Positions 1,947-22,700 of a stretch of 59,496 nucleotides of DNA are shown piece by piece (within the stretch, counting starts at the first letter, position 1; each line of letters begins with the position of its first letter). Made by a program: the position numbers and the translations under genes. This DNA is from a virus (lineage: Duplodnaviria; Caudoviricetes): positions 1 to 59,496 of the IMG/VR virus record IMGVR_UViG_3300035670_000232. One strand, 5' to 3'. A model generated the notes under the pieces. That model was not told the DNA's origin and made no database searches. It was given only the letters and a program-made list of their open reading frames with translations.

Positions 1947-3281
1947 ATGAGTACAGAAACCGACGACGAAGAGACAGTTGTATGTGCGGACGGCGAAACC
2001 CGTCCGGCATCCCTTTGCGTGGAGATTGACGGCGATTTCTACCAGTCCGATAGCGAGGATATTATCCTCTGCGATGACGACGAGTGGCGATTGCTGGAGG
2101 ACTGCGTGGAGACTGTCAACCATGGTTGGCGTCACCGCGACGAGTGCCACAACATTCCTCGCAATTCGCGGGAACAGCGATGGTACTACGAAGACGACGA
2201 AGATATTGTCTGCTGTCACGACGGCGAATACCGTATGCGTGACGACTGTACCTACGTCGAATGCGAGGGCGAATACTACCACTACGACGAGGTGTTTCAC
2301 TGCGAACACTGTGAAAACAGTTATCCAGACAGCTACTCGTCTCATATGGTAACGAATCGCCGTGGTTATGAGCAGACATGGTGCGAAACCTGTTTCCATG
2401 AGGACGGGTTTTGCTGCGAGAGTTGTGGCGAATGCTTCCACAACGACCACTATAACGAGGGTTGCTACTGCAATGACTGTGCCGGTGATAGCGAGGAGGA
2501 GCCTGAGGATCAAGGCGGTATTGAGTGCTACTCATGCCGCAAGTCCGACCGACTCCAGCCCGAGTCCACCGACAAGCAGTTGCTGGGCTACGAGTTGGAG
2601 GTGGTCAGTCGCAACGGATCGGTGAGCGATGCGGTGAAGTTCGTCAGGCAGCACCTGGCTACCGACTACGTTACCCTCAAATCCGATGGCAGCATCTGCG
2701 GCCCCGGCTTTGAGATCGTGTCACGGCCAGACAGTCTGGCAGTCCACAAGAAAAAGACTGAGGCCTTCCTCGCAGAGGCCAAGGATCACCTCAAATCGTG
2801 GCCAGCGAACCTGGACTGCGGGATGCACGTTCACATAACACGATCAGCACTCTCGCCCCTGCAACTTGGCAAGATGCTAGTCTTCCTCAACGACCCCGGC
2901 AACGAGCGATTCGTTACCGATGTGGCCGGGCGGGGGCCGATTGAATGGTGCAAGCGTAGTCCGAAAAAGCTGACCGATGGCATCAAGCGTAGCGACGAAC
3001 GTCGGGCAGCACTGAATCTCACCAACGACCGCACCGTGGAAGTAAGAATCTTCCGTGGCAACGTGGCCCGCGATGGGTTCATCAAAAACTTGGAGTTTGT
3101 GCAGGCTCTCGTAGACTTCACTGCTCCAGCCGAACAGTCTATCGGCAACTCGTGCCGCCACGACGAGTTCTGCAAGTGGCTCAATCCAAAACAGTACCCA
3201 ACACTTCACGCCTTCCTCCTGCGTAAGGGCTATGGCGTGAAGAAAATCAATCTCAAGAAGGGAGAGGACGAATGTGCCTAG
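1947..3281 (+). CDS. Putative amidoligase (COOH-NH2 ligase type 2) with acidic Cys/His-rich N-terminal repeats
   Basis: GYELEV, KSDGSI, GFEIVS, CGMHVH, TVEVRIFRG motifs; multiple CxxC. Confidence 0.85.
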   Translation: MSTETDDEETVVCADGETRPASLCVEIDGDFYQSDSEDIILCDDDEWRLLEDCVETVNHGWRHRDECHNIPRNSREQRWYYEDDEDIVCCHDGEYRMRDDCTYVECEGEYYHYDEVFHCEHCENSYPDSYSSHMVTNRRGYEQTWCETCFHEDGFCCESCGECFHNDHYNEGCYCNDCAGDSEEEPEDQGGIECYSCRKSDRLQPESTDKQLLGYELEVVSRNGSVSDAVKFVRQHLATDYVTLKSDGSICGPGFEIVSRPDSLAVHKKKTEAFLAEAKDHLKSWPANLDCGMHVHITRSALSPLQLGKMLVFLNDPGNERFVTDVAGRGPIEWCKRSPKKLTDGIKRSDERRAALNLTNDRTVEVRIFRGNVARDGFIKNLEFVQALVDFTAPAEQSIGNSCRHDEFCKWLNPKQYPTLHAFLLRKGYGVKKINLKKGEDECA

Positions 3282-4072
3282 CAGTCTACAAGCCAGCGAA
3301 TGTGCTGCCCAACTGGGAAGCCTACGAGCATGGCTTTGACAACAACAAAGACGGTGCGGGTTTCGTGGCGGCAGTCAATGGCCGTATCGAAATCCACAAG
3401 GGTTTCTTCACATTCGATGAGTTCAAGGCAGCGTTTGAGCCATACGCTGCTGCTCAGGCGGCCATTCACTTCCGACTGGCTACGCATGGCAACACCGACC
3501 ACGGTAATTGCCATCCGTTCCGCGTGTCGGACGAGACGGCGATGGTTCACAATGGCATCTTGAACATCGACTGCAACGTGAACAAAGAGAAGTCCGACAC
3601 CTGGCACTACTGCGAGCTAGTCTTGGCCCCGATGGCGAAGCGTGATCGCGGTTTCTTCAGGCGAGGAGCGATCAAGTTCATGGGCGAGGCTGCGATCAAG
3701 GGCAGCAAGTTCATCTTCCTCCGGGCAGATGGAGCCCATTCAATCTGGAATGAGAACGACGGGCTATGGGAGAACGACCAGTGGTGGAGCAACACATCCT
3801 TCAGGGTGCCACGCTACACCGCTGGCTACTTCGCCAAGGCCTTCTCCTCTTCCAAGAAAAAGGAAAAGGCCAGCGACGACTGGGGCTGGGATGTGCGGGA
3901 CTACGGCAAGGCCAGCAGCGAGAGCGAATACTACGACTTCCTCACTGGCGAAGCCAAGTGGGCGTACGACGAACTCCGCGACGTAGGCTTTGACGACTAC
4001 GAGATTGACAGACTGTACCGCGAAGAGGGTATCGACGCGGTGATTGCAACTGCGGAAGAAACCTACGAGTGA
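3272..4072 (+). CDS. Class II (Ntn) glutamine amidotransferase
   Basis: N-terminal Cys2 (MCL), N.DGAG, HFRLATHG, NCHPF, HNG, SDT motifs. Confidence 0.9.
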   Translation: MCLAVYKPANVLPNWEAYEHGFDNNKDGAGFVAAVNGRIEIHKGFFTFDEFKAAFEPYAAAQAAIHFRLATHGNTDHGNCHPFRVSDETAMVHNGILNIDCNVNKEKSDTWHYCELVLAPMAKRDRGFFRRGAIKFMGEAAIKGSKFIFLRADGAHSIWNENDGLWENDQWWSNTSFRVPRYTAGYFAKAFSSSKKKEKASDDWGWDVRDYGKASSESEYYDFLTGEAKWAYDELRDVGFDDYEIDRLYREEGIDAVIATAEETYE

Positions 4073-4082
4073 AAGGGCAACG

Positions 4083-4301
4083 ATGGATAAACCGATAGCG
4101 ACACTGACAATCACACTGACTGCGGCACAGGTGGCTACGATCACCGACGTTCTCAAGACTGCATCACTGGCTGCCTCACTCTGGGAGAGCATAGGTGGAG
4201 AGCCGAACCCAGTATCGGGGATGGATGCACTGACCAGCGTGTCCAGGGTGCTGGCTGAGGCGGCTAGTGCGGATATGAAACGACGCGCGGAGATGAACTG
4301 A
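4083..4301 (+). CDS. Small hypothetical protein
   Basis: Tightly packed + strand operon. Confidence 0.65.
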   Translation: MDKPIATLTITLTAAQVATITDVLKTASLAASLWESIGGEPNPVSGMDALTSVSRVLAEAASADMKRRAEMN

Positions 4302-7429: not shown

Positions 7430-8228
7430 ATGCTACGTCCGTGTGTCTACCGACAAGCAGGAGAATTCCTTTGAGGTACAGCAAGCTCGCCTCATTGAGG
7501 CAGCTAAGAAGCTGGGCCTGCCGGTCAAGGTGTACGCAGACTTCGATGTGTCGGCACGGAAGATTGCCTTGCACAATCGGCCCGAGGGCAAGAGGATGTG
7601 CGAAGACTTGGAGCCGGGGGATCATGTGTTCTTCACCTCTATCTCCCGTGGTTTCCGCCGGGCAGCCGAGTGCATCCAGCGGTTCCAGACATGGTGGGAG
7701 ATGGGCATCACCGCCCACATGCTGGACATGAACGTGGACATGAGTACCCCCTATGGCCGTGCCATCCTGGGGTACATGGCAGTGGGTGCGGAGCTTGAGT
7801 CCGACCTGAACTCCGAGCGAAGGAAGGAGATAGTAGCCCACAAGCGGAAGACAGACCAGCCATACAACCAGATCCGACCGTGGGGATGGATCGCCACCAA
7901 GGATAAGCGTGGCAAGCTCAAGGGCTGGGCTATCTACGAGCCCGAGCGTCAGACCGTGAAGCTCATCCGCTCGCTGCGGGAAGCGGGTGCCTCATACCGG
8001 GACATCGTGTTCGATCTGTCCATCAAGTACAAGATCAAGAAGCCCCACGCGAAGGGCGGCGACACCTACTACCAGCTTGTGGATGTTGTCTCTCTTCTGA
8101 AGGCGGCGGCAAATGGGTATCCAAGGCTGCCGCGAGCCTTTTGGCAAGCTCGCGACTACGCACAGAAGCTAGACGAGTTGAGGTTGAATGGCGACCTGCG
8201 ATTGCGCGAAGAGTGCATCCATTCTTGA
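7416..8228 (+). CDS. Serine recombinase, resolvase/invertase family
   Basis: YVRVSTDKQ catalytic motif, S.R...RP, SISRGFR, AELE....SER. Confidence 0.9.
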   Translation: MPTTRCYVRVSTDKQENSFEVQQARLIEAAKKLGLPVKVYADFDVSARKIALHNRPEGKRMCEDLEPGDHVFFTSISRGFRRAAECIQRFQTWWEMGITAHMLDMNVDMSTPYGRAILGYMAVGAELESDLNSERRKEIVAHKRKTDQPYNQIRPWGWIATKDKRGKLKGWAIYEPERQTVKLIRSLREAGASYRDIVFDLSIKYKIKKPHAKGGDTYYQLVDVVSLLKAAANGYPRLPRAFWQARDYAQKLDELRLNGDLRLREECIHS

Positions 8229-8637
8229 ACCGATCCTCGGCCAACGCCCGGTCCTCCTCGTCCAGATCGCTGATGGCCAGGCCCAAGTAGTCGGGATGCT
8301 CAAAGATTGGGCATAGTTCCTCTGCCTCTGAGAGGGAAATCTTCCAGTCGCCAGGAGCTTTCTTCGCCTTGTTCATCCACTTGTACATGGCGTTCATGGT
8401 GGCCATGACGAAGTACGGCTTGGGCGTTGGCTTCCTGCCTGGAGGGGCGGCGCTTACTCGGTAGCGACGGGCAGCTTTGCATATGGCAAGGAACCCCTCG
8501 GCCTCAAGGTCTGGTATCAGTTGAGCCCGCTGCCATCTGGCCCGCTTGCTGACGAACCACTTCGCCATCATGGGCGCGAGCCAAGCCCAGTCGTTGGCCA
8601 GGTCACGCTGTCTCTTGTTCAATCGCTCGCTTGGCAT
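8035..8637 (-). CDS. Sigma70-family RNA polymerase sigma factor
   Basis: Region 2 DLEAEGFLAICKAARRY; region 4 AISDLDEEDR...TLRAIA HTH. Confidence 0.8.
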   Translation of the reverse strand: MPSERLNKRQRDLANDWAWLAPMMAKWFVSKRARWQRAQLIPDLEAEGFLAICKAARRYRVSAAPPGRKPTPKPYFVMATMNAMYKWMNKAKKAPGDWKISLSEAEELCPIFEHPDYLGLAISDLDEEDRALAEDRFKNGCTLRAIAGRHSTSTRLASVRSRELAKRLAAALDTHLPPPSEERQHPQAGSRCRRPSRGAS

Positions 8638-14943: not shown

Positions 14944-15049
14944 TCTTCTTTTCTACTGGGAGGAAGGTTGTCGGGAATGCATGAGCCACATCGAACGTAA
15001 CGACTATCTCATCGACTGTCTCAGGCAAGAGCCCGTCTGTGTTTGGCAC
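14813..15049 (-). CDS. Possible small hypothetical protein
   Basis: Fills the gap after the helicase but overlaps the next ORF. Confidence 0.35.
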   Translation of the reverse strand: MPNTDGLLPETVDEIVVTFDVAHAFPTTFLPVEKKNGFFKRLWLRIASCFGPRRRDSSSLHCEQGGDRKRRKEDEAGS

Positions 15050-16550
15050 GACGATCCTGCTCCTTTCTAAAGGTGGATCTGATCCACGGTTTCAGGGTTG
15101 TGTTACCAGCCCCCCACTCCAGATACCAAGGAGGGAGCTTGGACATTTCCACGCCGCCGTACTTGCCGCGCAGTGGATTGCGGTATGTTCCTACACTCCG
15201 CTTGCCGTTGGCGTCAAGTTCAAAACTCTCGCTCGTGACGTTGCCCCTCGCCCGGCCCGTCATCATCTCGCGGCGACGTTGTATTTCCTCGGCAATCATT
15301 CGTCGCTCAAGCTCTTGCTGGGCGAGTGCGTCCATCTCGGCCTGCGTGAGAGGCTCACCGGCCTCGGCCATTTGCTTCTTCACTGCCTCTCGGATGCCAG
15401 GCTTAGTGTCGCTGACGAACATATCCACAGCGGTCACGAGCCGGTGATCCAAGGAGGCGTCAGTGCAGTCGATGATCTGGAAGTCTGGCTTCCCGCTGGC
15501 GGCGATGGCTGCGATGCGGGACTCTGGAGTGGACCCGTCGAAGTCCACTGTCCCGGCAAGCGGGCGGGTCGCACGGCCCACACACTGGAGCCAGAAGCTG
15601 CGAGAGCGAGTGGGCCTGGCAAGGATCATGGTGCGAATCTTCGGGTGATCGAACCCAACCGCCACCACAGCACAGTTCACAAGAACAGTAGACTCACCAG
15701 ACTTGAACTTCTGAATGGCTACCTGCCTCTCCTCCTCGGGCTGGGTTCCCCACACCACCTCGGCCTTGACCCCGTAGTTGTTGGCGAGGTAGTGGGCGAC
15801 CCCCTTGGCCGACGCTACCGATGGCGTGAACACCACAGTCGGACCCAGTGCCTCCTGGCTTGTGATGAGGGCAATGCGGTGGAGGTTGGCTTCCTTCTCA
15901 ATGGCAGCTTGGAGTTGCTGCTGGTTGAAGTCACCGCCCTGCACCTTCACCTCAGACAGATCAAGGCTTTCCACCCTGGCGAGCTTGCACTTCGGCGGCA
16001 CCGCCCAGCCGTTAGCGATGGCCCAGTGAATGTCAAGGTTGCACAGCGGCTCGTAGTAGTCCTTCATGGCGCGGCCATCCATGAGGAATGGCGTGGCGGT
16101 GAACCCTGCAACCATGGCCCCGTGGTCGTTGAACCAGCGAAACATCTCCATGCACGGCTCAGTGAACTGCATGTGTGCCTCGTCCACAATCACAAGCCGG
16201 ATGTCCTTGAACTTCTTGTACCGCCCGCGAATGAGGGTCTGCTTGGATGCAACCACAACGGACGGGCTAAACCATTCGTCGTGATGCACGCGGTACTCTG
16301 CCATCTCCACTCCTGGATCAAGGCCGATCACCTCCCGCACCTTGTCTACTGCCTGCCAGGTCAACTCCCGCAGCGGGGTCATAATGAGAGTGCGGCCCCC
16401 GGTCTGCTCAAGCACACGGCGAGCAAGCTCCGTGAAGATGACCGTCTTGCCAGCCCCAGTGAAGATGCCGGATAGTGTGGCCTTCGTGCCTAGCTCCATC
16501 TCCAAGAGGTGCTGGTCGATGTTCGATTCTTGGTAATCGCGTGGCTTCAT
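15021..16550 (-). CDS. Superfamily 2 DEAH helicase
   Basis: TGAGKT, DEAH, TATP, GFD.P, RPTRS..QCVGRATR. Confidence 0.95.
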   Translation of the reverse strand: MKPRDYQESNIDQHLLEMELGTKATLSGIFTGAGKTVIFTELARRVLEQTGGRTLIMTPLRELTWQAVDKVREVIGLDPGVEMAEYRVHHDEWFSPSVVVASKQTLIRGRYKKFKDIRLVIVDEAHMQFTEPCMEMFRWFNDHGAMVAGFTATPFLMDGRAMKDYYEPLCNLDIHWAIANGWAVPPKCKLARVESLDLSEVKVQGGDFNQQQLQAAIEKEANLHRIALITSQEALGPTVVFTPSVASAKGVAHYLANNYGVKAEVVWGTQPEEERQVAIQKFKSGESTVLVNCAVVAVGFDHPKIRTMILARPTRSRSFWLQCVGRATRPLAGTVDFDGSTPESRIAAIAASGKPDFQIIDCTDASLDHRLVTAVDMFVSDTKPGIREAVKKQMAEAGEPLTQAEMDALAQQELERRMIAEEIQRRREMMTGRARGNVTSESFELDANGKRSVGTYRNPLRGKYGGVEMSKLPPWYLEWGAGNTTLKPWIRSTFRKEQDRRAKHRRALA

Positions 16551-16569
16551 GTAGGTTCCGTAATCTGGG

Positions 16570-16661
16570 TGCTAAGTCGCTGCTAAGTGCCACCGCAACC
16601 CGGTGCTAAGTGGCCGAAAGCGGCTTATCGGCGGGCAACCGGGACTAATAGGTAGTTAGGC
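16570..16661 (+). mobile_element. attI-like integron recombination site with upstream direct repeats
   Basis: GACTAAT-5bp-GTTAGGC (16643-16661), same geometry as attI1; TGCTAAGT x3 at 16570, 16581, 16604. Confidence 0.55.
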
Positions 16662-16952
16662 GAAGGCCGGAAGGTCGGAATCATGAACCCACTCAAACAC
16701 ATGCCACACGAATGGATTGATGACGGCTGTTCCGATAAAACGCCGAGACGCCTCATGGTTTGGACTGATCGGATTGCCGGTCCCGATGATCTCAATGCAA
16801 CGCGTCTTTGTCGCGTTCGCTGTAGGCACCAAAGCCCACAGGCATAGCTCGCCGTTCTGGTTGGCAACGCTCAATATCCTGGCGCCCGACGGCATCTCAA
16901 TGTCCTGCGTGTCGGTGATTGCCAGAGTGTATTTCCATATCCGGTTGTCCAT
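16656..16952 (-). CDS. Phage hypothetical protein inside cassette 1 (IWKY.L..MP.GA.ILSV..Q..LWA.V)
   Basis: GGAGG SD; its TAA stop lies in the GTTAGGC core site. Confidence 0.85.
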   Translation of the reverse strand: MDNRIWKYTLAITDTQDIEMPSGARILSVANQNGELCLWALVPTANATKTRCIEIIGTGNPISPNHEASRRFIGTAVINPFVWHVFEWVHDSDLPAFA

Positions 16953-16973
16953 CGTCTACCTCCTATGTGAAAC

Positions 16974-17062
16974 GCCTAACAAAGCCTTGCAGCAGAATCG
17001 CGTCGGCGTCTTTTCTCATGGTTCGTCCTTTGGCTGCGATCTGCTGAAGGCAGCCGTTAGAA
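16974..17062 (+). mobile_element. Integron attC site 1 (89 bp)
   Basis: GCCTAAC-AAAGC-CTTGCAGC-AGAATCGC...GCGATCT-GCTGAAG-GCAGCC-GTTAGAA: R'', 5-bp spacer, 8-bp L'', 7-bp L', 6-bp spacer, R', two extrahelical bases. Confidence 0.85.
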
Positions 17063-17076
17063 AACAGGAAACCAAG

Positions 17077-17148
17077 CAGCCCCACGGGGAGTCGAACCCC
17101 GACTCTCGGAACGAAAATCCGATTTCCTAACCATTAGAAGATGGGGCC
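17077..17148 (-). tRNA. tRNA-Glu (UUC), no encoded CCA
   Basis: Acceptor GGCCCCA/TGGGGCT, anticodon stem TCGGA/TCCGA with loop TTTTCGT, T-arm CGGGG-TTCGACT-CCCCG. Confidence 0.9.
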
Positions 17149-17240
17149 GTGCATTCGCCGCAGACTTTGCGGCAATTAGCCGATGTATTCGCCGCCGTAG
17201 TATTTCAGCCCCGGCTCGCTCTCATACCATTCGTCGAAAG

Positions 17241-17507
17241 TCATTTGTCCTCCAGTTCTCGCAGCCTCGCAATCGCCTCAATCATCCGCAGGTGGCACTC
17301 CTCGGTCGCCGCCATTATCGCGGCATCTCTCTCCGCTCGTATCGCTCGCATGTCGCGATCAAAAACGTGAACGCTCCAGGCAACGCCAAAGCCGACCACA
17401 ACGACCAACACCCCGAAGAGCATCGCCTCGTCGTTCCAGAATTTACAGAGCCGCACAAAAGCCCTAACAAAGCCTTGCAGCCGACTCCTAGCAGCGTCTG
17501 TCATCAT
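17241..17507 (-). CDS. Single-TM membrane protein starting inside attC2
   Basis: GGAG SD and ATG in the attC2 central region; TM LFGVLVVVVGFGVAWSV. Confidence 0.7.
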   Translation of the reverse strand: MMTDAARSRLQGFVRAFVRLCKFWNDEAMLFGVLVVVVGFGVAWSVHVFDRDMRAIRAERDAAIMAATEECHLRMIEAIARLRELEDK

Positions 17508-17550
17508 TGATACTCCATTGGCTGCGATCTGCTGAAGGCAGCCGTTAGAA
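17462..17550 (+). mobile_element. Integron attC site 2 (89 bp)
   Basis: CCCTAAC-AAAGC-CTTGCAGC...GCTGAAG-GCAGCC-GTTAGAA; right ~35 bp identical to attC1. Confidence 0.8.
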
Positions 17551-17570
17551 AAACCCCCGTCTCTCCGGGG
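17549..17570 (-). terminator. Hairpin with U-tract after ssb
   Basis: CCCCG-GAGAGA-CGGGG-G-TTTTT on the - strand. Confidence 0.45.
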
Positions 17571-17621
17571 CGTCAAGCCTAATGTCGCTGGCTTTCGCGG
17601 ACTGGCGGGAGGGTGGACCGC

Positions 17622-17978
17622 TCAGTCAAAGTCACCAAAGTCGTCGTCGCGGGACGGTGCCTTCTTGGGCTTGTCACCGCCACCCTTGCCGCACAGCTTC
17701 ACGCATCGCGTGTTGACTACCGTGCGCCGGTGAGTGACACCATCCTTTTCCCACGACTGGTTCTCCAGTTCCCCTTCGATGAGGACGGGAGTTCCCTTGG
17801 AGATGTAGTCCAGGCCGCCCTTCGGCTCCCACCAGACCACATCCATAAACGTCACCTTGTCGTCGTAACCATTGATGGCAATGCTGAACTTCGCCAGCGT
17901 CTTGCCGCCCTTGGTTTCGTGAACCTCGGGATCCTTGGTCACGTTACCCATCGCAATGTACTTCTGATAACCCATCAC
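17622..17978 (-). CDS. ssb: Single-stranded DNA-binding protein
   Basis: GNVTKDPE, KG..V.IEG.L...SWEKDG, acidic tail DDDFGDFD. Confidence 0.92.
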   Translation of the reverse strand: MMGYQKYIAMGNVTKDPEVHETKGGKTLAKFSIAINGYDDKVTFMDVVWWEPKGGLDYISKGTPVLIEGELENQSWEKDGVTHRRTVVNTRCVKLCGKGGGDKPKKAPSRDDDFGDFD

Positions 17979-18133
17979 TCACCCTCCTTCTTTAGGGAAA
18001 CAAACTCTTTCAACGCTTCATCATACCGTCGCCTGCGGTCAATCTCCTCACGGACCATGACCGTGGCTATCTGAACAAACGAACGCAAGTCCTGGGCAAG
18101 CTCAACGAATGCTCTGTCTGCATTACCCTGCAT
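17975..18133 (-). CDS. Small hypothetical protein
   Basis: GAGG SD; stop overlaps the ssb start. Confidence 0.55.
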   Translation of the reverse strand: MQGNADRAFVELAQDLRSFVQIATVMVREEIDRRRRYDEALKEFVSLKKEGE

Positions 18134-18800
18134 CCTCGGCCTCCCACTTCTTCTTGTACTCGGCCTCGCACCGCTTGTAGACGCCAGGGGTAATGGCCTT
18201 CTCCTTGGCACGGAGCTTCACCTTAGCCAGGAACTTGGCCGCAGCCTCAGCATCCTCGGCACTGACAATAGCCTCCTTGGCCGCAGCCTCGTAGGCCAAC
18301 TCCTTTTCCATGTCTTCCGCAACCTGCATGGACTTGGAAGCAGGCTTCGGCTCCGGTTCCGCCCGGTCCTTGTGTTCGCCAAGCCCGTTGCCATCGTCGT
18401 CAGGTTCGCCGCTGAACGCACCAGTCAAGGCCATGAGGAGAGTACGCTTGGCATAGGTGCAAGCGGACCCGAACTCCTGCATATGCTTCTTGCCCATGTA
18501 CAGCGGGGCCATGGCCGAGATGTACTCCCCGCTCATGTGCCTCAGCGTACCGATCATCACCCAATCGCCATTCGGCAGCACGCCCGTCCGGTAGTCAGGC
18601 AGGGCCATGCCGTGCTTCACAAGAGCTTCACGAACCGCAAGGCAGCACGACTGGAATGAGGCGTACTTGCTGCGGAAGTGATCGTTCTTGCTATCAAAAC
18701 CGGCAGTCTTGAACTCAAGCTGTGCAGCACCCAAAGCTGCCGTCAGCTTTGCCGTTGTGCCAGTACCGCTCGGCCCAAGGACTTCGTTATGGTCATTCAT
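18123..18800 (-). CDS. ERF-family ssDNA annealing protein
   Basis: N.HF.SKYA, H.SGE, FGSA.TYAKR, DDDGN. Confidence 0.9.
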   Translation of the reverse strand: MNDHNEVLGPSGTGTTAKLTAALGAAQLEFKTAGFDSKNDHFRSKYASFQSCCLAVREALVKHGMALPDYRTGVLPNGDWVMIGTLRHMSGEYISAMAPLYMGKKHMQEFGSACTYAKRTLLMALTGAFSGEPDDDGNGLGEHKDRAEPEPKPASKSMQVAEDMEKELAYEAAAKEAIVSAEDAEAAAKFLAKVKLRAKEKAITPGVYKRCEAEYKKKWEAEDAG

Positions 18801-19662
18801 CACCCTCAAGGTCTACGACCCCCTCCAAGTTCAGAGCCCACTGCGGCAAGGCAAGCTCAGTGATAGTCTCCGATGCAGGCGGAAGGTACTCCCCCGTCTG
18901 CTGCCGCAAGACAACATCTTCGATCACGCTCATGAGTTGTGCGCCTACCCCCTGTACGAAATCTTGCGGGAGCGTGTGTACCCTGCAAGCGTACGGCGGC
19001 ATGGTCTGGACAAAGACGAATGGCATCGCAAAGTCCACAAGACCCTGCACCGCAGCAGCGGCGTGCTGGTAGATGAAGTCCTGCTCCGCATATCCATAAG
19101 ACAGGACTGACCTGGCTAGGTCACTGAATGACTTGCTCGTTGTCTTGAGATCCCACACAAGCTCCCTGGTCACGCCGTCCGGGCGGTACTTCATTCGCAA
19201 GCCGCCAAGCTCATACAAGCCTACGTCCTGTGTTGACACGGTATTGTCCAAGAGATAGCGGGCAGCGGGGTTCTCGTACATATGGTCAAGCATCGTCTCA
19301 AAAACTTCCTTCTCTGACTCACTGACGATGATGCCCTTCTGCTCTGCGGCCCATTCCTTGTAGGCGTTGCCCGACCTGGCCCCGTTCTTGGCCAACACAT
19401 CGACTGGCGGGACCACAACAGAGTCATCGAACGACTTCCCGGAGAGGATGTTCATAACAATGTCGTCAAACGCTGTGCCGATACTTGTGCTTTTTGTGTC
19501 AGCCCGGAGCCGCTTGCCAGCGTCCAGCCACCGCTGCACCTCACCGCCACCCATCTTCACAGCGGTCAGGTAAGACCGGGAAGGCAGGGGGATGTTGAGG
19601 TACTCGTACATCGACATCCCCGTGACCAGTCGGGGCAGTTCGCAGGTCGCGTAATCAATCAT
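18793..19662 (-). CDS. RecE/exonuclease VIII-like PD-(D/E)XK exonuclease
   Basis: GTAF, K.RPD, DLKTT, Y..Q..IY motifs. Confidence 0.85.
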   Translation of the reverse strand: MIDYATCELPRLVTGMSMYEYLNIPLPSRSYLTAVKMGGGEVQRWLDAGKRLRADTKSTSIGTAFDDIVMNILSGKSFDDSVVVPPVDVLAKNGARSGNAYKEWAAEQKGIIVSESEKEVFETMLDHMYENPAARYLLDNTVSTQDVGLYELGGLRMKYRPDGVTRELVWDLKTTSKSFSDLARSVLSYGYAEQDFIYQHAAAAVQGLVDFAMPFVFVQTMPPYACRVHTLPQDFVQGVGAQLMSVIEDVVLRQQTGEYLPPASETITELALPQWALNLEGVVDLEGDE

Positions 19663-19730
19663 CGCTTCACCCTCATAAAGAAGCCCCATCCGTGGGGCCA
19701 ACGCCATCCGTGACATGAATGACGAGGGAG

Positions 19731-19758
19731 ATAGTAGCGATGGCGGTCAGGGTGTCAA
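19731..19758 (-). promoter_or_regulatory. Sigma70-type promoter for the recombination/replication operon
   Basis: TTGACA-16nt-TACTAT. Confidence 0.7.
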
Positions 19759-22700
19759 GAGGGCTTTCCCAAAAAAAACTTCCAGCGGGTCACGCTCGGC
19801 TTTTTTGCGTTCCCTAGCCCGCTTAGATGCCTCAGCCTGCATGATCCGGTAGTGCATGTACTGCCTACGTTGATCTTCAGAGAGCCGTGCGAGAGCCTCT
19901 TCCGGCACGTTGAGCGTCTCGTAGCTTTGGACGCCAGGCACTGTGCGAAGAAGTTCTGCGTAGGTGTCACGGGCCGCATGCTCCATAGCCTTGTTGCGAT
20001 CAATCGTGCGTAGCCCAGCGCCCACGAGCTTGTTGGCGATGAGCTTCTGCGCTCGCTCCATCGGCGACAGTCGCTCGTCAATAGCAGTGCGAACGATACC
20101 GGCAGCCTGGCCACCCCCTGGAACGTTCACGAGCAGTTGCTCTATATGGCGGCCTAAGGTTCCGAGCCCCGCCTTGTCCTCAAGCATGGAGTAGGTGTCG
20201 CTGAGTTCACGGCCCGAGTAAAGCTGGCGGTCCAGCAGCAACTCAAGCGGCGCCTTGACTGCGGGGTTCAGCATCCCAGCAAAGTTCATCCCGGTCTTCT
20301 GGAGTGCGTCAGTGACCTTCTCGTACAGCGTGCCGCCGATGCCAGGAGAGATGAGATTCACTGGGTCATAGGGCATGGTGATGCCGCTGATGACGTTGGC
20401 AAGGTTCGGGTCACTCCCTGCCGCACCTGGGATTTGGATAGCCGCTGACTTGCGGAGATGCTCTGGAAGGAAGGTGTCCTCGTTCGGGCGTGATGCGTTG
20501 GAGATTGCCCGAATCGTCCGGCCCTGCAATGCACCAGGCCGCTCAAGGATGTTCTCTACCACCGAAGGAATGATGCCACGGGGGTAGGAGTAGAAGGGGA
20601 TGAACCGCTTCAGCTTCCGCTCAAACTCCGTGAATGCGGCTGGACTGTAGTCGATCTGCGTCTTGGCCACTTTGGCAGCAGCGGCATCTGGCACGGCACC
20701 ACGGCGAATCTCACCGAGGTAGGTGCCTACGCGATTGGCGTCTTCCACTCGCTTGCCAAGTCGCTCGTTCCATTGCAGCAGCGGGTTGAGGGTCTCCTTC
20801 GGGGCAGCGCGTTCTTTAGCGATGCCAGCAAAGTCAACTCCGCGAACGGTCAGCCAGTCCATCCACGAACGGTCTTTGTCGTAGAGCTTCGGCCTAGTCT
20901 GGTCGCCCTGCCCAACAATGAATGCTCTGGTGTCAGCCCCCTCATTGATGAAGCCCTGCCCAAGGTCGTGACGACCAGACTCCATGAGGAACTTGTCGAT
21001 CCGCTGCTTGGTGTCCAGGCCCTCATAGCCAGGGGCTTTGGCAAGCCGCTTGGCGATGGCGTTGTAGTTGCCGCTCCCGGCCCGCATGCCAGCCCACCAG
21101 TCGGCCACGCGACCAGGGAGAGCCTTGAGCCCACCCTCGTCCGTGTTCATCATCGTGGACAGCAGGCCTGAGTACAGGTTGCGGAAGTGGTACGCGGGAG
21201 ACGCAAGCGCACCGACCTTGAACGAGCTTGTGTAGCTGTCGTACAGCCTGGTCAGCGGGTTGTCCTTGTTCAGCGCTTGCTGTGGGGCAACCTTCTTGAG
21301 GGCGTTGAGTTCGGATTCCGAGATGGAGTGGCGAGCCACATCCATGCCAGTCAGTTCCTCAAAGCGATTCTTGTTGAAGCCAATGTCCTTGAGGGCTTGG
21401 TCCATCGGGACGTAGCCACCGCCCTCAATCATGTCGGCAAGCTGCGGCCGGGCAGCAGCGGCAAGCCTGTCGCGCAGCATATCGGCCGCACCAACAGACC
21501 TGGCCTCGCCAAGCATGGAGCGAGCCATGTCGCTAACCACGCTGTTGTCGAACAGGCCAATGCCTTCCTGGGCGTGCTGGAGGTCGGCCTGCCTGAGCAG
21601 GTCGCCAAGCTCCGTCTTGAGTTGGCGTTGCTTGCCCGTCAGGAGATCCAGTGCGGATTGAAGTTTGGCTGGCTCGTCAATGTCCGGCGTGGCAAGAGCC
21701 CCCATGAGGGAGTCAATGGTTTGGCCCTCGTGCCGGATGTTCTGATATGGGGCCTCAAGGCCGAGGCTTGCAAACGCCTGGTCGATGATCGCAGGAGTGT
21801 CTGCTGGTGCAGCTTCGATCAGCCTTTGTTGCAGCCCCTCCACCTGCGGGTCCGTGAGGAGGCGGCGGAAGGTTTCCCGTGGGCGAACGATGTCGGTGTA
21901 CTCGCGTCGGCCCTTGCCAACGAGATCGTCAAGAGAGAACAGCCGCTCGCCTCGTTCATACGGAATCTTCTTGCGAGGATCGCGGTTCGGAATGACAGGA
22001 GCTTCTTCAGTGGCAAACCTCTTCACCTGGCGGGCCAGGTAGCTCGTGCCTTCATTGCTACCAAAGGACGCGGCGTTGAGCCCTGCGGCCTCTCGGTTGC
22101 GGAGAGACTCAAGGTTGCGGCGGTGCGACCAGTCGGCGAAGTCACGCCATGCCGGGGTGTTCATCACCAGATCCACAGCACTCTGGTCTGTGATGTTGGC
22201 AATGTTGGCCGGATCCATCCCGGCTTCGATCATGTCGGCAATGGCGTTCTGCACACGCTGGCTGTTGAAGTTGACGGCCTCGCCGCCCAACTCTCCTGTC
22301 ACGCCATCCGATGCACGGTAGACCTCACGGGCCAGTTCCTCGCGGGCATCGCCCATTGCCTTCTTCTGATTGGCGAACGCCTCGCGGGCAAGCCACTGAT
22401 CTGCACGGTCGGTCTGCCCCATGACTGTGGGGTCAAATGCCGCAATAGCACGAGTCGCCAGCGGGCCGGTGTACCTATTGGAGGCAAGTCCTTCGCCGAG
22501 CTTGTCGAATGCTCGTGCAATCGGGCGGCCAGCCTCGCCCGTGAGGATCGGAAGCCCGGTCTTCATACCAGGAATGCGGGCCTCCATCACGGCACCCAGC
22601 GTCTGATCCAGGAGGGAGTCAGCATCTAGCCCGGAACCTTGGGCGGCGCGGGTGAAGTTGGACAGTGCATCTTCGCGAGCCTGGCTGATGAGATCCTGCG

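Follow-up and report, generated by a model that had tools for sequence, protein, structure and literature searches.

The window analyzed here is a complete virus record of 59,496 nt (IMG/VR record IMGVR_UViG_3300035670_000232; Duplodnaviria, Caudoviricetes). Between its ssb and helicase genes lies an insert of 1071 nt (16551-17621). This insert is probably integron cassette DNA in the early operon of the phage, with attC recombination sites whose loops provide a Shine-Dalgarno (SD) sequence and an ATG as the start of bottom-strand cassette genes. The feature is, overall, real and well supported. The identity of the sites, their polarity, the cassette boundaries and the association of loop starts with phages are established, and the codon pattern of a related cassette indicates that translation there enters from the attC edge. 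We infer in addition that the loop starts are used in the window itself, that ribosomes melt the hairpins, and that the integron integrase (IntI) of the host recombines the sites at present. Pirellulales are the likely hosts of the phage.

Integron attC sites in a phage insert

The insert contains two 95-nt repeats (16970-17064 and 17458-17552) with 82% identity to each other. Their right arm, 35 nt long, has exactly two occurrences in the window, compared to an expectation of 0 from shuffles. Along the + strand, each repeat opens with AAC and a 3-nt spacer. The first arm follows, made of a 5-bp box, a 7-bp stem and a 4-bp stem, with a bulged G between the first two and a bulged A between the last two. 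After a loop of about 34 nt come the complementary arm, a spacer of 4 nt and GTT. A covariance model built from 111 distinct family copies finds these two sites in the window and no other match at E<=1. The elements delimited from them are the following.

16655-16662, + strand: left boundary core site GTTAGGCG, a bare site without attC; crossover G|TT at 16655|16656
16656-17056, + strand: cassette 1, 401 nt, placed by the flank rule; it opens with the TT that follows the left core site and closes with the G of GTT in attC1
16978-17058, + strand (top strand): attC1, 81 nt, AAC...GTT; 99.0 bits in the covariance model
17057-17544, + strand: cassette-like unit 2, 488 nt, of uncertain standing as a true cassette
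17466-17546, + strand: attC2, 81 nt; 82.3 bits in the covariance model

In attC1 the parts are an R box, an unpaired spacer of 3/4 nt, a 5-bp L box, bulged bases at 16989 and 16997, and the loop. The architecture departs from the usual one in some details. The R boxes of the window are GCCTAAC/CCCTAAC and GTTAGAA, with a final A instead of the Y of RYYYAAC / GTTRRRY. The spacer has 3/4 nt instead of the usual 5-6, and the 3' arm of the minus strand holds two bulged bases, C (usually G) and T, that stand 7 bp apart (6 being optimal for IntI1).

The same sites are found well beyond this phage. An exact 27-mer of the family is present in 8 viral-contig stretches, in at least 117 metagenome stretches and in 9 genome contigs, 6 of them titled as Pirellulales, Pirellula or Bythopirellula metagenome-assembled genomes (MAGs). 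Three of five such MAGs encode an IntI above the TIGR02249 cut-off (405-466 bits), and in these three the covariance model detects five arrays, of 16, 9, 3, 4 and 5 sites, directly beside intI. Helix 2 is paired at 98.7% across the family; 6/16 pairs are changed on both sides (e.g., GCCTT/AAGGC to GCGAT/ATCGC), and none of 500 shuffles reaches the covariation score. AAC and GTT are invariant or nearly so in the 111 family members, and the right arm is almost invariant.

The flanks of the sites carry the signature of a hybrid R box. The flank after GTT and the flank before the next AAC share at least 5 nt of contiguous complementarity in 101/181 neighbor pairs, and at most 2 nt in 47/181, while the two flanks of one and the same site reach 5 nt in only 10/328 cases. 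Such a signature is expected if the crossover falls at G|TT between cassettes. One cassette was found in two contexts (loci L012 and L101), where it is 88% identical from GTT to GTT, right-hand attC included, next to a different left attC. The right-hand attC therefore belongs to the cassette. Taken together, the intI-adjacent arrays, the paired stems with compensatory changes and the hybrid R-box signature bear out the attC identity proposed in an earlier note on this DNA, and on this comparative evidence the window repeats are integron attC sites of a family that populates Pirellulales chromosomal integrons.

The earlier note had also proposed that both cassette genes run opposite to the usual cassette orientation and in line with the phage operon, and three lines of evidence agree with it. 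In 5/5 integrase-linked arrays, the strand that corresponds to + in the window points away from intI. On the + strand, it is the 5'-AAC arm that carries the bulged bases, and extrahelical bases on this arm are a published mark of the top strand (PMC5027507). Array polarity and bulged-base arm thus identify the window's + strand as the top strand; the cassette genes are therefore bottom-strand genes, co-directional with the phage operon. The third line is a count of the longest ORF (open reading frame) of each cassette, with strand called from ORF length alone: the majority attC class gave 95 top, 9 bottom and 42 unclear, and the integrase-linked arrays gave 9 top, 0 bottom and 6 unclear.

The boundaries of the insert are equally informative. 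The left core site GTTAGGCG is the exact reverse complement (8/8) of CGCCTAAC (16973-16980) at the left end of attC1, giving cassette 1 a flank complementarity of 8/8. The array thus has a bare G|TT at its start and a full attC2 at its end, beside a terminator-like hairpin of ssb. GWT is the consensus reported for genome insertion sites (attG) by Loot et al. (bioRxiv 10.1101/2022.09.11.507474), and the layout of the insert is as expected for insertion at a genome site of this consensus. Before insertion, the empty phage site would read ...GGTAG|TTAGAAAAA.... In three relatives (L150, L155 and L153, with helicases 39-55% identical) the gap from ssb to helicase measures 78-90 nt and is without attC, and the entire insert, unit 2 included, is missing.

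Contigs from four DNA runs of one study, from which the record may stem, cover 15800-18400 and branch at both attC sites and at 16630-16660; after 16660, other sequences continue in those contigs. At the joints (e.g., 16657 to 16978), the short side measures 21-30 letters and no intervening sequence is given. Co-occurring strains that carry different cassettes at one and the same site in the phage may account for the branching, attC sites of other organisms not being separable in these data.

Two attC sites 488 nt apart and no intI make up a CALIN (cluster of attC sites lacking integrase), defined by at least two attC without an integrase. A complete integron would have intI, attI and promoter on the same replicon, a set that the record does not hold. 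Since no integrase match occurs in the record, the element is a CALIN-type cluster and not an integron.

Start signals in the attC loop

Four ORFs and a tRNA gene lie within the two units.

16656-16952, minus strand: cassette 1 gene, 98 aa, DUF7352 / phrog_3848 (PF24043, 93.6 bits)
16963-17019, minus strand: 18-codon leader ORF MRKDADAILLQGFVRRFT, which starts in the attC1 loop
17076-17148, minus strand: tRNA-Glu (anticodon TTC), in unit 2 between the attC sites (ARAGORN; Rfam RF00005, 57.2 bits)
17176-17244, minus strand: 22-codon ORF MTFDEWYESEPGLKYYGGEYIG, with GGAGGA upstream and an ATG that overlaps the TGA of the 88-aa ORF (ATGA)
17241-17507, minus strand: 88-aa ORF opened by the ATG of the attC2 loop, an orphan

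It was proposed in the earlier note that the bottom strand of each attC supplies a translation start, and the letters are as it described them. In attC1, the minus strand reads AAGGA (17030-17026) and, 6 nt later, ATG (17019-17017). The 18-codon ORF opened there ends in a TAG (16965-16963) that overlaps the SD of the 98-aa gene, 10 nt before its ATG. The attC1 leader thus has the makeup of a coupling leader, with SD and ATG in the recombination site and a stop near the next start. The 98-aa gene has a start of its own, AGGAGG (16964-16959) 6 nt before the ATG (16952-16950), and the attC1 loop ORF can therefore only be a coupling leader. At its other end, this gene stops with a TAA (16658-16656) inside GTTAGGCG, as the note had claimed for the left core site. 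In attC2, GGAG (17516-17513) is followed 5 nt later by ATG (17507-17505), which opens the 88-aa ORF; its first 14 residues are encoded by attC and a hydrophobic stretch comes next. Both loop ORFs read LQGFVR across the conserved left arm, again as claimed. Centroid RNA folds computed for the minus strand leave both SD and ATG unpaired, in the loop. DUF7352, the 22-aa ORF and the tRNA segment have no match in any comparison locus carrying the attC family.

The same note had named unused and non-conserved internal starts as the outcome that would speak against its reading. Run as a refutation test, this comparison left the reading standing. The family has two loop classes: the majority is without SD and ATG on the bottom strand, and a minority gains both by few substitutions. 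Scored by script, SD and ATG occur in the loop of 11/13 viral-contig sites (window included) and in 0/26 integrase-linked sites, with 2/21 for the other sites on MAG contigs and 24/268 for those on metagenome contigs. Five of the metagenome cases are of a different "MP..." type and were set aside; the remaining ones cluster in few loci, e.g., L070 (6/6) and L012 (3/4), which carry phage genes. Loop ATGs were also read by eye in the viral contigs L164, L165 and L007. The combination is therefore conserved in phage-borne sites and rare in chromosomal ones. It also coincides with gene orientation: loop-start cassettes gave 10 bottom to 5 top and the rest 9 bottom to 95 top (Fisher p=1.8e-6, from ORF length alone and with kinship ignored). 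In the consensus of the majority loop, a top-strand ATG opens a 14-codon ORF that ends at the right-arm TGA, with no obvious SD.

Thirty-five loop-start sites were listed, of which 4 run off the contig and 5 are of the "MP..." type, leaving 26 that were classed or considered. Eleven of these open in-frame ORFs of 75-269 aa that fill the cassette. These fusions include N6_N4_Mtase and Dam methyltransferases; upstream of their domains, which start at residues 48 and 27, there is no further ATG. Another 14 open leaders of 13-37 codons. In 11 of the 14, the stop falls between -8 and +15 nt relative to the start of an ORF that is 68 aa or longer, compared to 0/14 in each of the other two frames. 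The last site opens a 61-codon ORF and was left unclassed. The 28 proteins linked to loop-start sites fall into 25 unrelated clusters.

Another indication of use comes from the cassette shared by L012 and L101. The leader of its 211-aa ORF in L012, MMTDAARSRLQGFV, is identical to the leader of the 88-aa ORF of the window. Directly after attC, codons 15-58 of this 211-aa gene show 16 synonymous and 2 non-synonymous codon differences. Such purifying selection from the attC edge implies that translation must enter from within attC. The attC-encoded codons 1-14 differ at 0 synonymous and 5 non-synonymous positions, and the amino-acid sequence of the leader itself is therefore not conserved.

It is thus reasonable to propose the following course of events. 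Cassette DNA would have inserted in the early (recombination/replication) operon, at a G|TT directly behind the ssb terminator. In the minus-sense mRNA, each attC hairpin would then stand directly 5' of the gene of its own cassette, and the loop of about 34 nt of the phage-associated subfamily would supply SD and ATG. Ribosomes would start in the loop and read through the 3' arm, always encoding ...LQGFV or, in another frame, ...AARLC. By a fusion route, reading would continue in frame into the gene, as from attC2 into the 88-aa ORF. By a coupling route, it would stop at the real start and hand over, as from attC1 to the DUF7352 gene. As attC lies on the gene's side of the crossover, the start signal would travel with the cassette. 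The phage has no integrase, and any recombination would therefore need host IntI.

A wider and more speculative view, which we regard as possible but would not favor, is that Pirellulales phages keep their own pool of "reverse" cassettes in which attC comes first, born in phage genomes and traded by IntI among unrelated phages. Here the hairpin loop would have become, in evolution, the start of translation for whichever gene stands behind it and in many cases also its N-terminal leader. Birth would take place in phage genomes in which all genes share one orientation relative to an inserted attC. These cassettes would occasionally return to bacterial arrays, and their cargo would comprise methyltransferases and small proteins, and also a tRNA. 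If this holds, it would make a tractable example of how new genes acquire an attC.

Points against loop-started cassettes and alternative readings

A number of observations weigh against the reading of the insert as cassette DNA with loop starts, beginning with those on its general terms. No PF00589 match at E<=1, and hence no integrase, was found anywhere in the 59,496-nt record. A terminator-like hairpin stands just upstream of attC2 in the direction of transcription. Compared to shuffles, the fold energies predicted for the sites are not clearly lower (z -0.4 to -2.2). ORF strand was unclear in 51/170 cassettes, and 5 loop-start cassettes came out as top-strand. In L003, L005 and L006 the flanking genes are mostly on the top strand, and "in line with the operon" is therefore no general rule. 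Finally, several phage contigs share genes and are not independent.

A second group of adverse points concerns attC2 and unit 2. Past the first 4 bp after the first bulged base, the stem of attC2 is only partly complementary. The flank AGAAAA is common to both attC sites, which suggests rearrangement and not a clean second insertion. The first bases of unit 2, TTAGAAAA, pair with the left flank of attC2 at 2/5 positions. From AAC through the loop, attC2 matches an L012 attC (L012 1533-1612) without a difference over the 52 nt of left arm and loop. That L012 site has a compensated right arm of its own, and the right arm and flank of attC2 equal those of attC1. The stem is mismatched because its two halves match different sites, and attC2 looks chimeric on this comparison.

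These points are the basis for the alternative that has the best chance of being right, though we would still bet against it: unit 2 would not be a mobile cassette but DNA trapped or rearranged between attC1 and a chimeric attC2 by homologous recombination, leaving cassette 1 as the one clean product of IntI. Erf and exonuclease genes of the phage adjoin the insert, and ARAGORN finds no tRNA in 22 other loci with this attC family, both of which fit such an origin. Against it, the whole insert, unit 2 with it, is missing from the three relatives, and low flank complementarity is not peculiar to unit 2, as the 47/181 neighbor pairs of the family with at most 2 nt make clear. This alternative would leave the reading of loop starts untouched.

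The remaining adverse points concern the genes of the window. The DUF7352 gene has its own SD and ATG, and residues 1-88 of its 98-aa protein match PF24043 profile positions 1-89, that is, from the first residue on. The 88-aa ORF has no homologue but itself among 5.8 billion proteins and no family match, and an in-frame ATG at codon 29 would allow a 60-aa product. This raises the possibility, in our view an unlikely one, that the attC sites are real but their loop SD and ATG are unused, with starts at codon 29 (88-aa ORF) and at 16952 (DUF7352), the motifs being due to shared descent within one phage-borne lineage. The partial relatedness of the phage contigs would agree with it, and the public runs listed as carrying the sequence include no RNA run. 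It accounts poorly, however, for the selection from the attC edge in L012/L101 behind a leader identical to that of attC2, for the methyltransferase fusions that have no other ATG before the domain, for the 11/14 leaders that stop at the real start in one frame only, and for the number of unrelated genes to which the sites are tied.

An improbable alternative of similar rank is that the 81-nt phage sites serve mainly as homology patches for phage recombinases (Erf, RecE, Sak4) that shuffle modules, with IntI no longer acting. Recombination genes do adjoin the arrays in the window, L003 and L012, hardly any variation is seen in the right arm, and attC2 has the look of a product of recombination inside the site. 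However, the 5-nt hybrid R-box signature is kept in 15/24 loop-start cassettes, compared to 84/146 of the rest, and homologous exchange would not maintain flank complementarity. The homology block of L012/L101 also ends exactly at GTT on both sides.

That the repeats have no integron link and are instead RNA elements of the phage (hairpins for processing or termination, or a repeated promoter or leader) is very improbable: they do form hairpins in the operon transcript that flank a tRNA, one of them abutting a terminator-like site, but arrays of the family stand next to intI in bacterial MAGs and always point away from it, the hybrid flank signature is present, and Rfam gives no match besides the tRNA.

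Relation to known systems and phage setting

Cassette DNA that is probably started from its own attC loop departs from the usual picture of a promoterless cassette gene followed by its attC and expressed from the top strand, in which the attC hairpin hinders translation. Inverted toxin-antitoxin cassettes of chromosomal integrons also have bottom-strand genes, but these carry their own promoters and start signals in the cassette body, whereas here the start is inside attC and no promoter is evident. In sedentary chromosomal integrons, e.g., the Vibrio cholerae repeats (VCRs) of Vibrio, attC sites are highly similar within a lineage, and integrons with an "inverted integrase" occur in Treponema and Planctomycetes. 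The family described here shares the homogeneity of its attC sites with the former. In addition, four of the five MAG arrays (L143, L144, L146 and L147) have intI co-directional with the array, which lies after the 3' end of intI; in L145, intI is divergent from the array. One of these intI genes has an internal TAG and two are partial. Unlike these systems, the window has two sites only, no intI or attI, and is part of a virus.

Clusters of attC sites in phages are already known. Qi et al. (2023; PMC9892861) reported 17 CALINs in 10,705 phage genomes, often with methyltransferases, and the reported phage attC sites were recombined by IntI1. The insert resembles them in having at least two attC and cassettes without intI, in the recurrence of methyltransferase cassettes, and in its position, as one reported CALIN lies just after a terminator that holds GTTRRRY motifs. 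According to the available text of that study, it used generic attC models without a link to a host attC family, and the CALIN cassettes of TJE1 and PH101 are typically oriented, whereas here bottom-strand genes come with a loop start. The text available for PMC9892861 contains no mention of "start codon" or "ribosome."

Coupling ORFs in recombination sites are known as well. ORF-11, ORF-17 and ORF-18 in attI1 and a short ORF in attC were described by Hanau-Bercot (2002) and Jacquier (2009), as cited in a review (PMC8876359). They share with the window the SD and ATG in a recombination site that feed the next gene by coupling, with a stop often derived from the core site. According to the same review, attC hairpins in mRNA hinder ribosomes unless translated. 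The described ORFs differ in lying on a top-strand transcript, in attI or the attC of the preceding cassette, and in being unfused. Here, the start would lie in the cassette's own attC loop on a bottom-strand transcript and move with the gene, and 11 sites open in-frame fusions.

Insertions at attG and isolated cassettes (bioRxiv 10.1101/2022.09.11.507474) likewise have a bare G|TT start and a full attC end, and their expression depends on a resident promoter. That work deals with bacterial chromosomes and canonical cassettes, in contrast to the phage operon and reversed gene of the window. Phage attC clusters and attI/attC coupling ORFs are therefore known, while a bottom-strand start in the cassette's own loop was not found described. 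Within a literature coverage that is incomplete, we found no description of an attC loop carrying the start of its own bottom-strand gene, or of a phage-linked sublineage of such sites.

If the reading is confirmed, a whole sublineage would be reversed, with attC preceding the gene and its protein-free loop acting as ribosome entry in one portable unit. A single DNA element would then be both a single-stranded recombination substrate and an mRNA initiation region. The reading would explain how expression of cassettes within phage operons is possible. It would also tie a group of phages to a host integron family, which would aid host assignment, and would provide material for the open question of cassette origin.

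The insert sits among phage genes that are nearly all on the bottom strand, as are the cassette genes of the window.

15021-16550, minus strand: phage helicase gene, downstream neighbor of the insert by transcription; profile matches
17555-17570, minus strand: terminator-like hairpin 3' of ssb, its T run abutting the right end of attC2
17622-17978, minus strand: phage ssb gene, upstream neighbor of the insert by transcription; profile matches

A comparable hairpin lies between ssb and helicase in L150. A promoter scan gave nothing above shuffle level, and the composition of the insert is not distinct from the rest of the phage. Megablast of 15000-20000 gave no match in a phage database of 50,697 records.

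Some minor observations were made in the related loci. In L012, a generic phage tyrosine integrase (3119-4192, minus strand) lies directly upstream of the four-site array and faces the same way as the bottom-strand genes of that array. It was considered as a phage-borne IntI and rejected, with a TIGR02249 score of 20 bits compared to the cut-off of 265. L155, a relative without the insert, has two weak attC-like matches of about 30 bits (8045-8141 and 8436-8533, minus strand), roughly 2.5-3 kb past the 3' end of the helicase gene. In the stretch from the left core site of the window to the start of helicase, GTGCTAAGT is present in three copies, one of them mismatched, within 43 nt (16569-16611, + strand) and nowhere else in the window; these repeats may serve the helicase operon as a promoter or regulator site.

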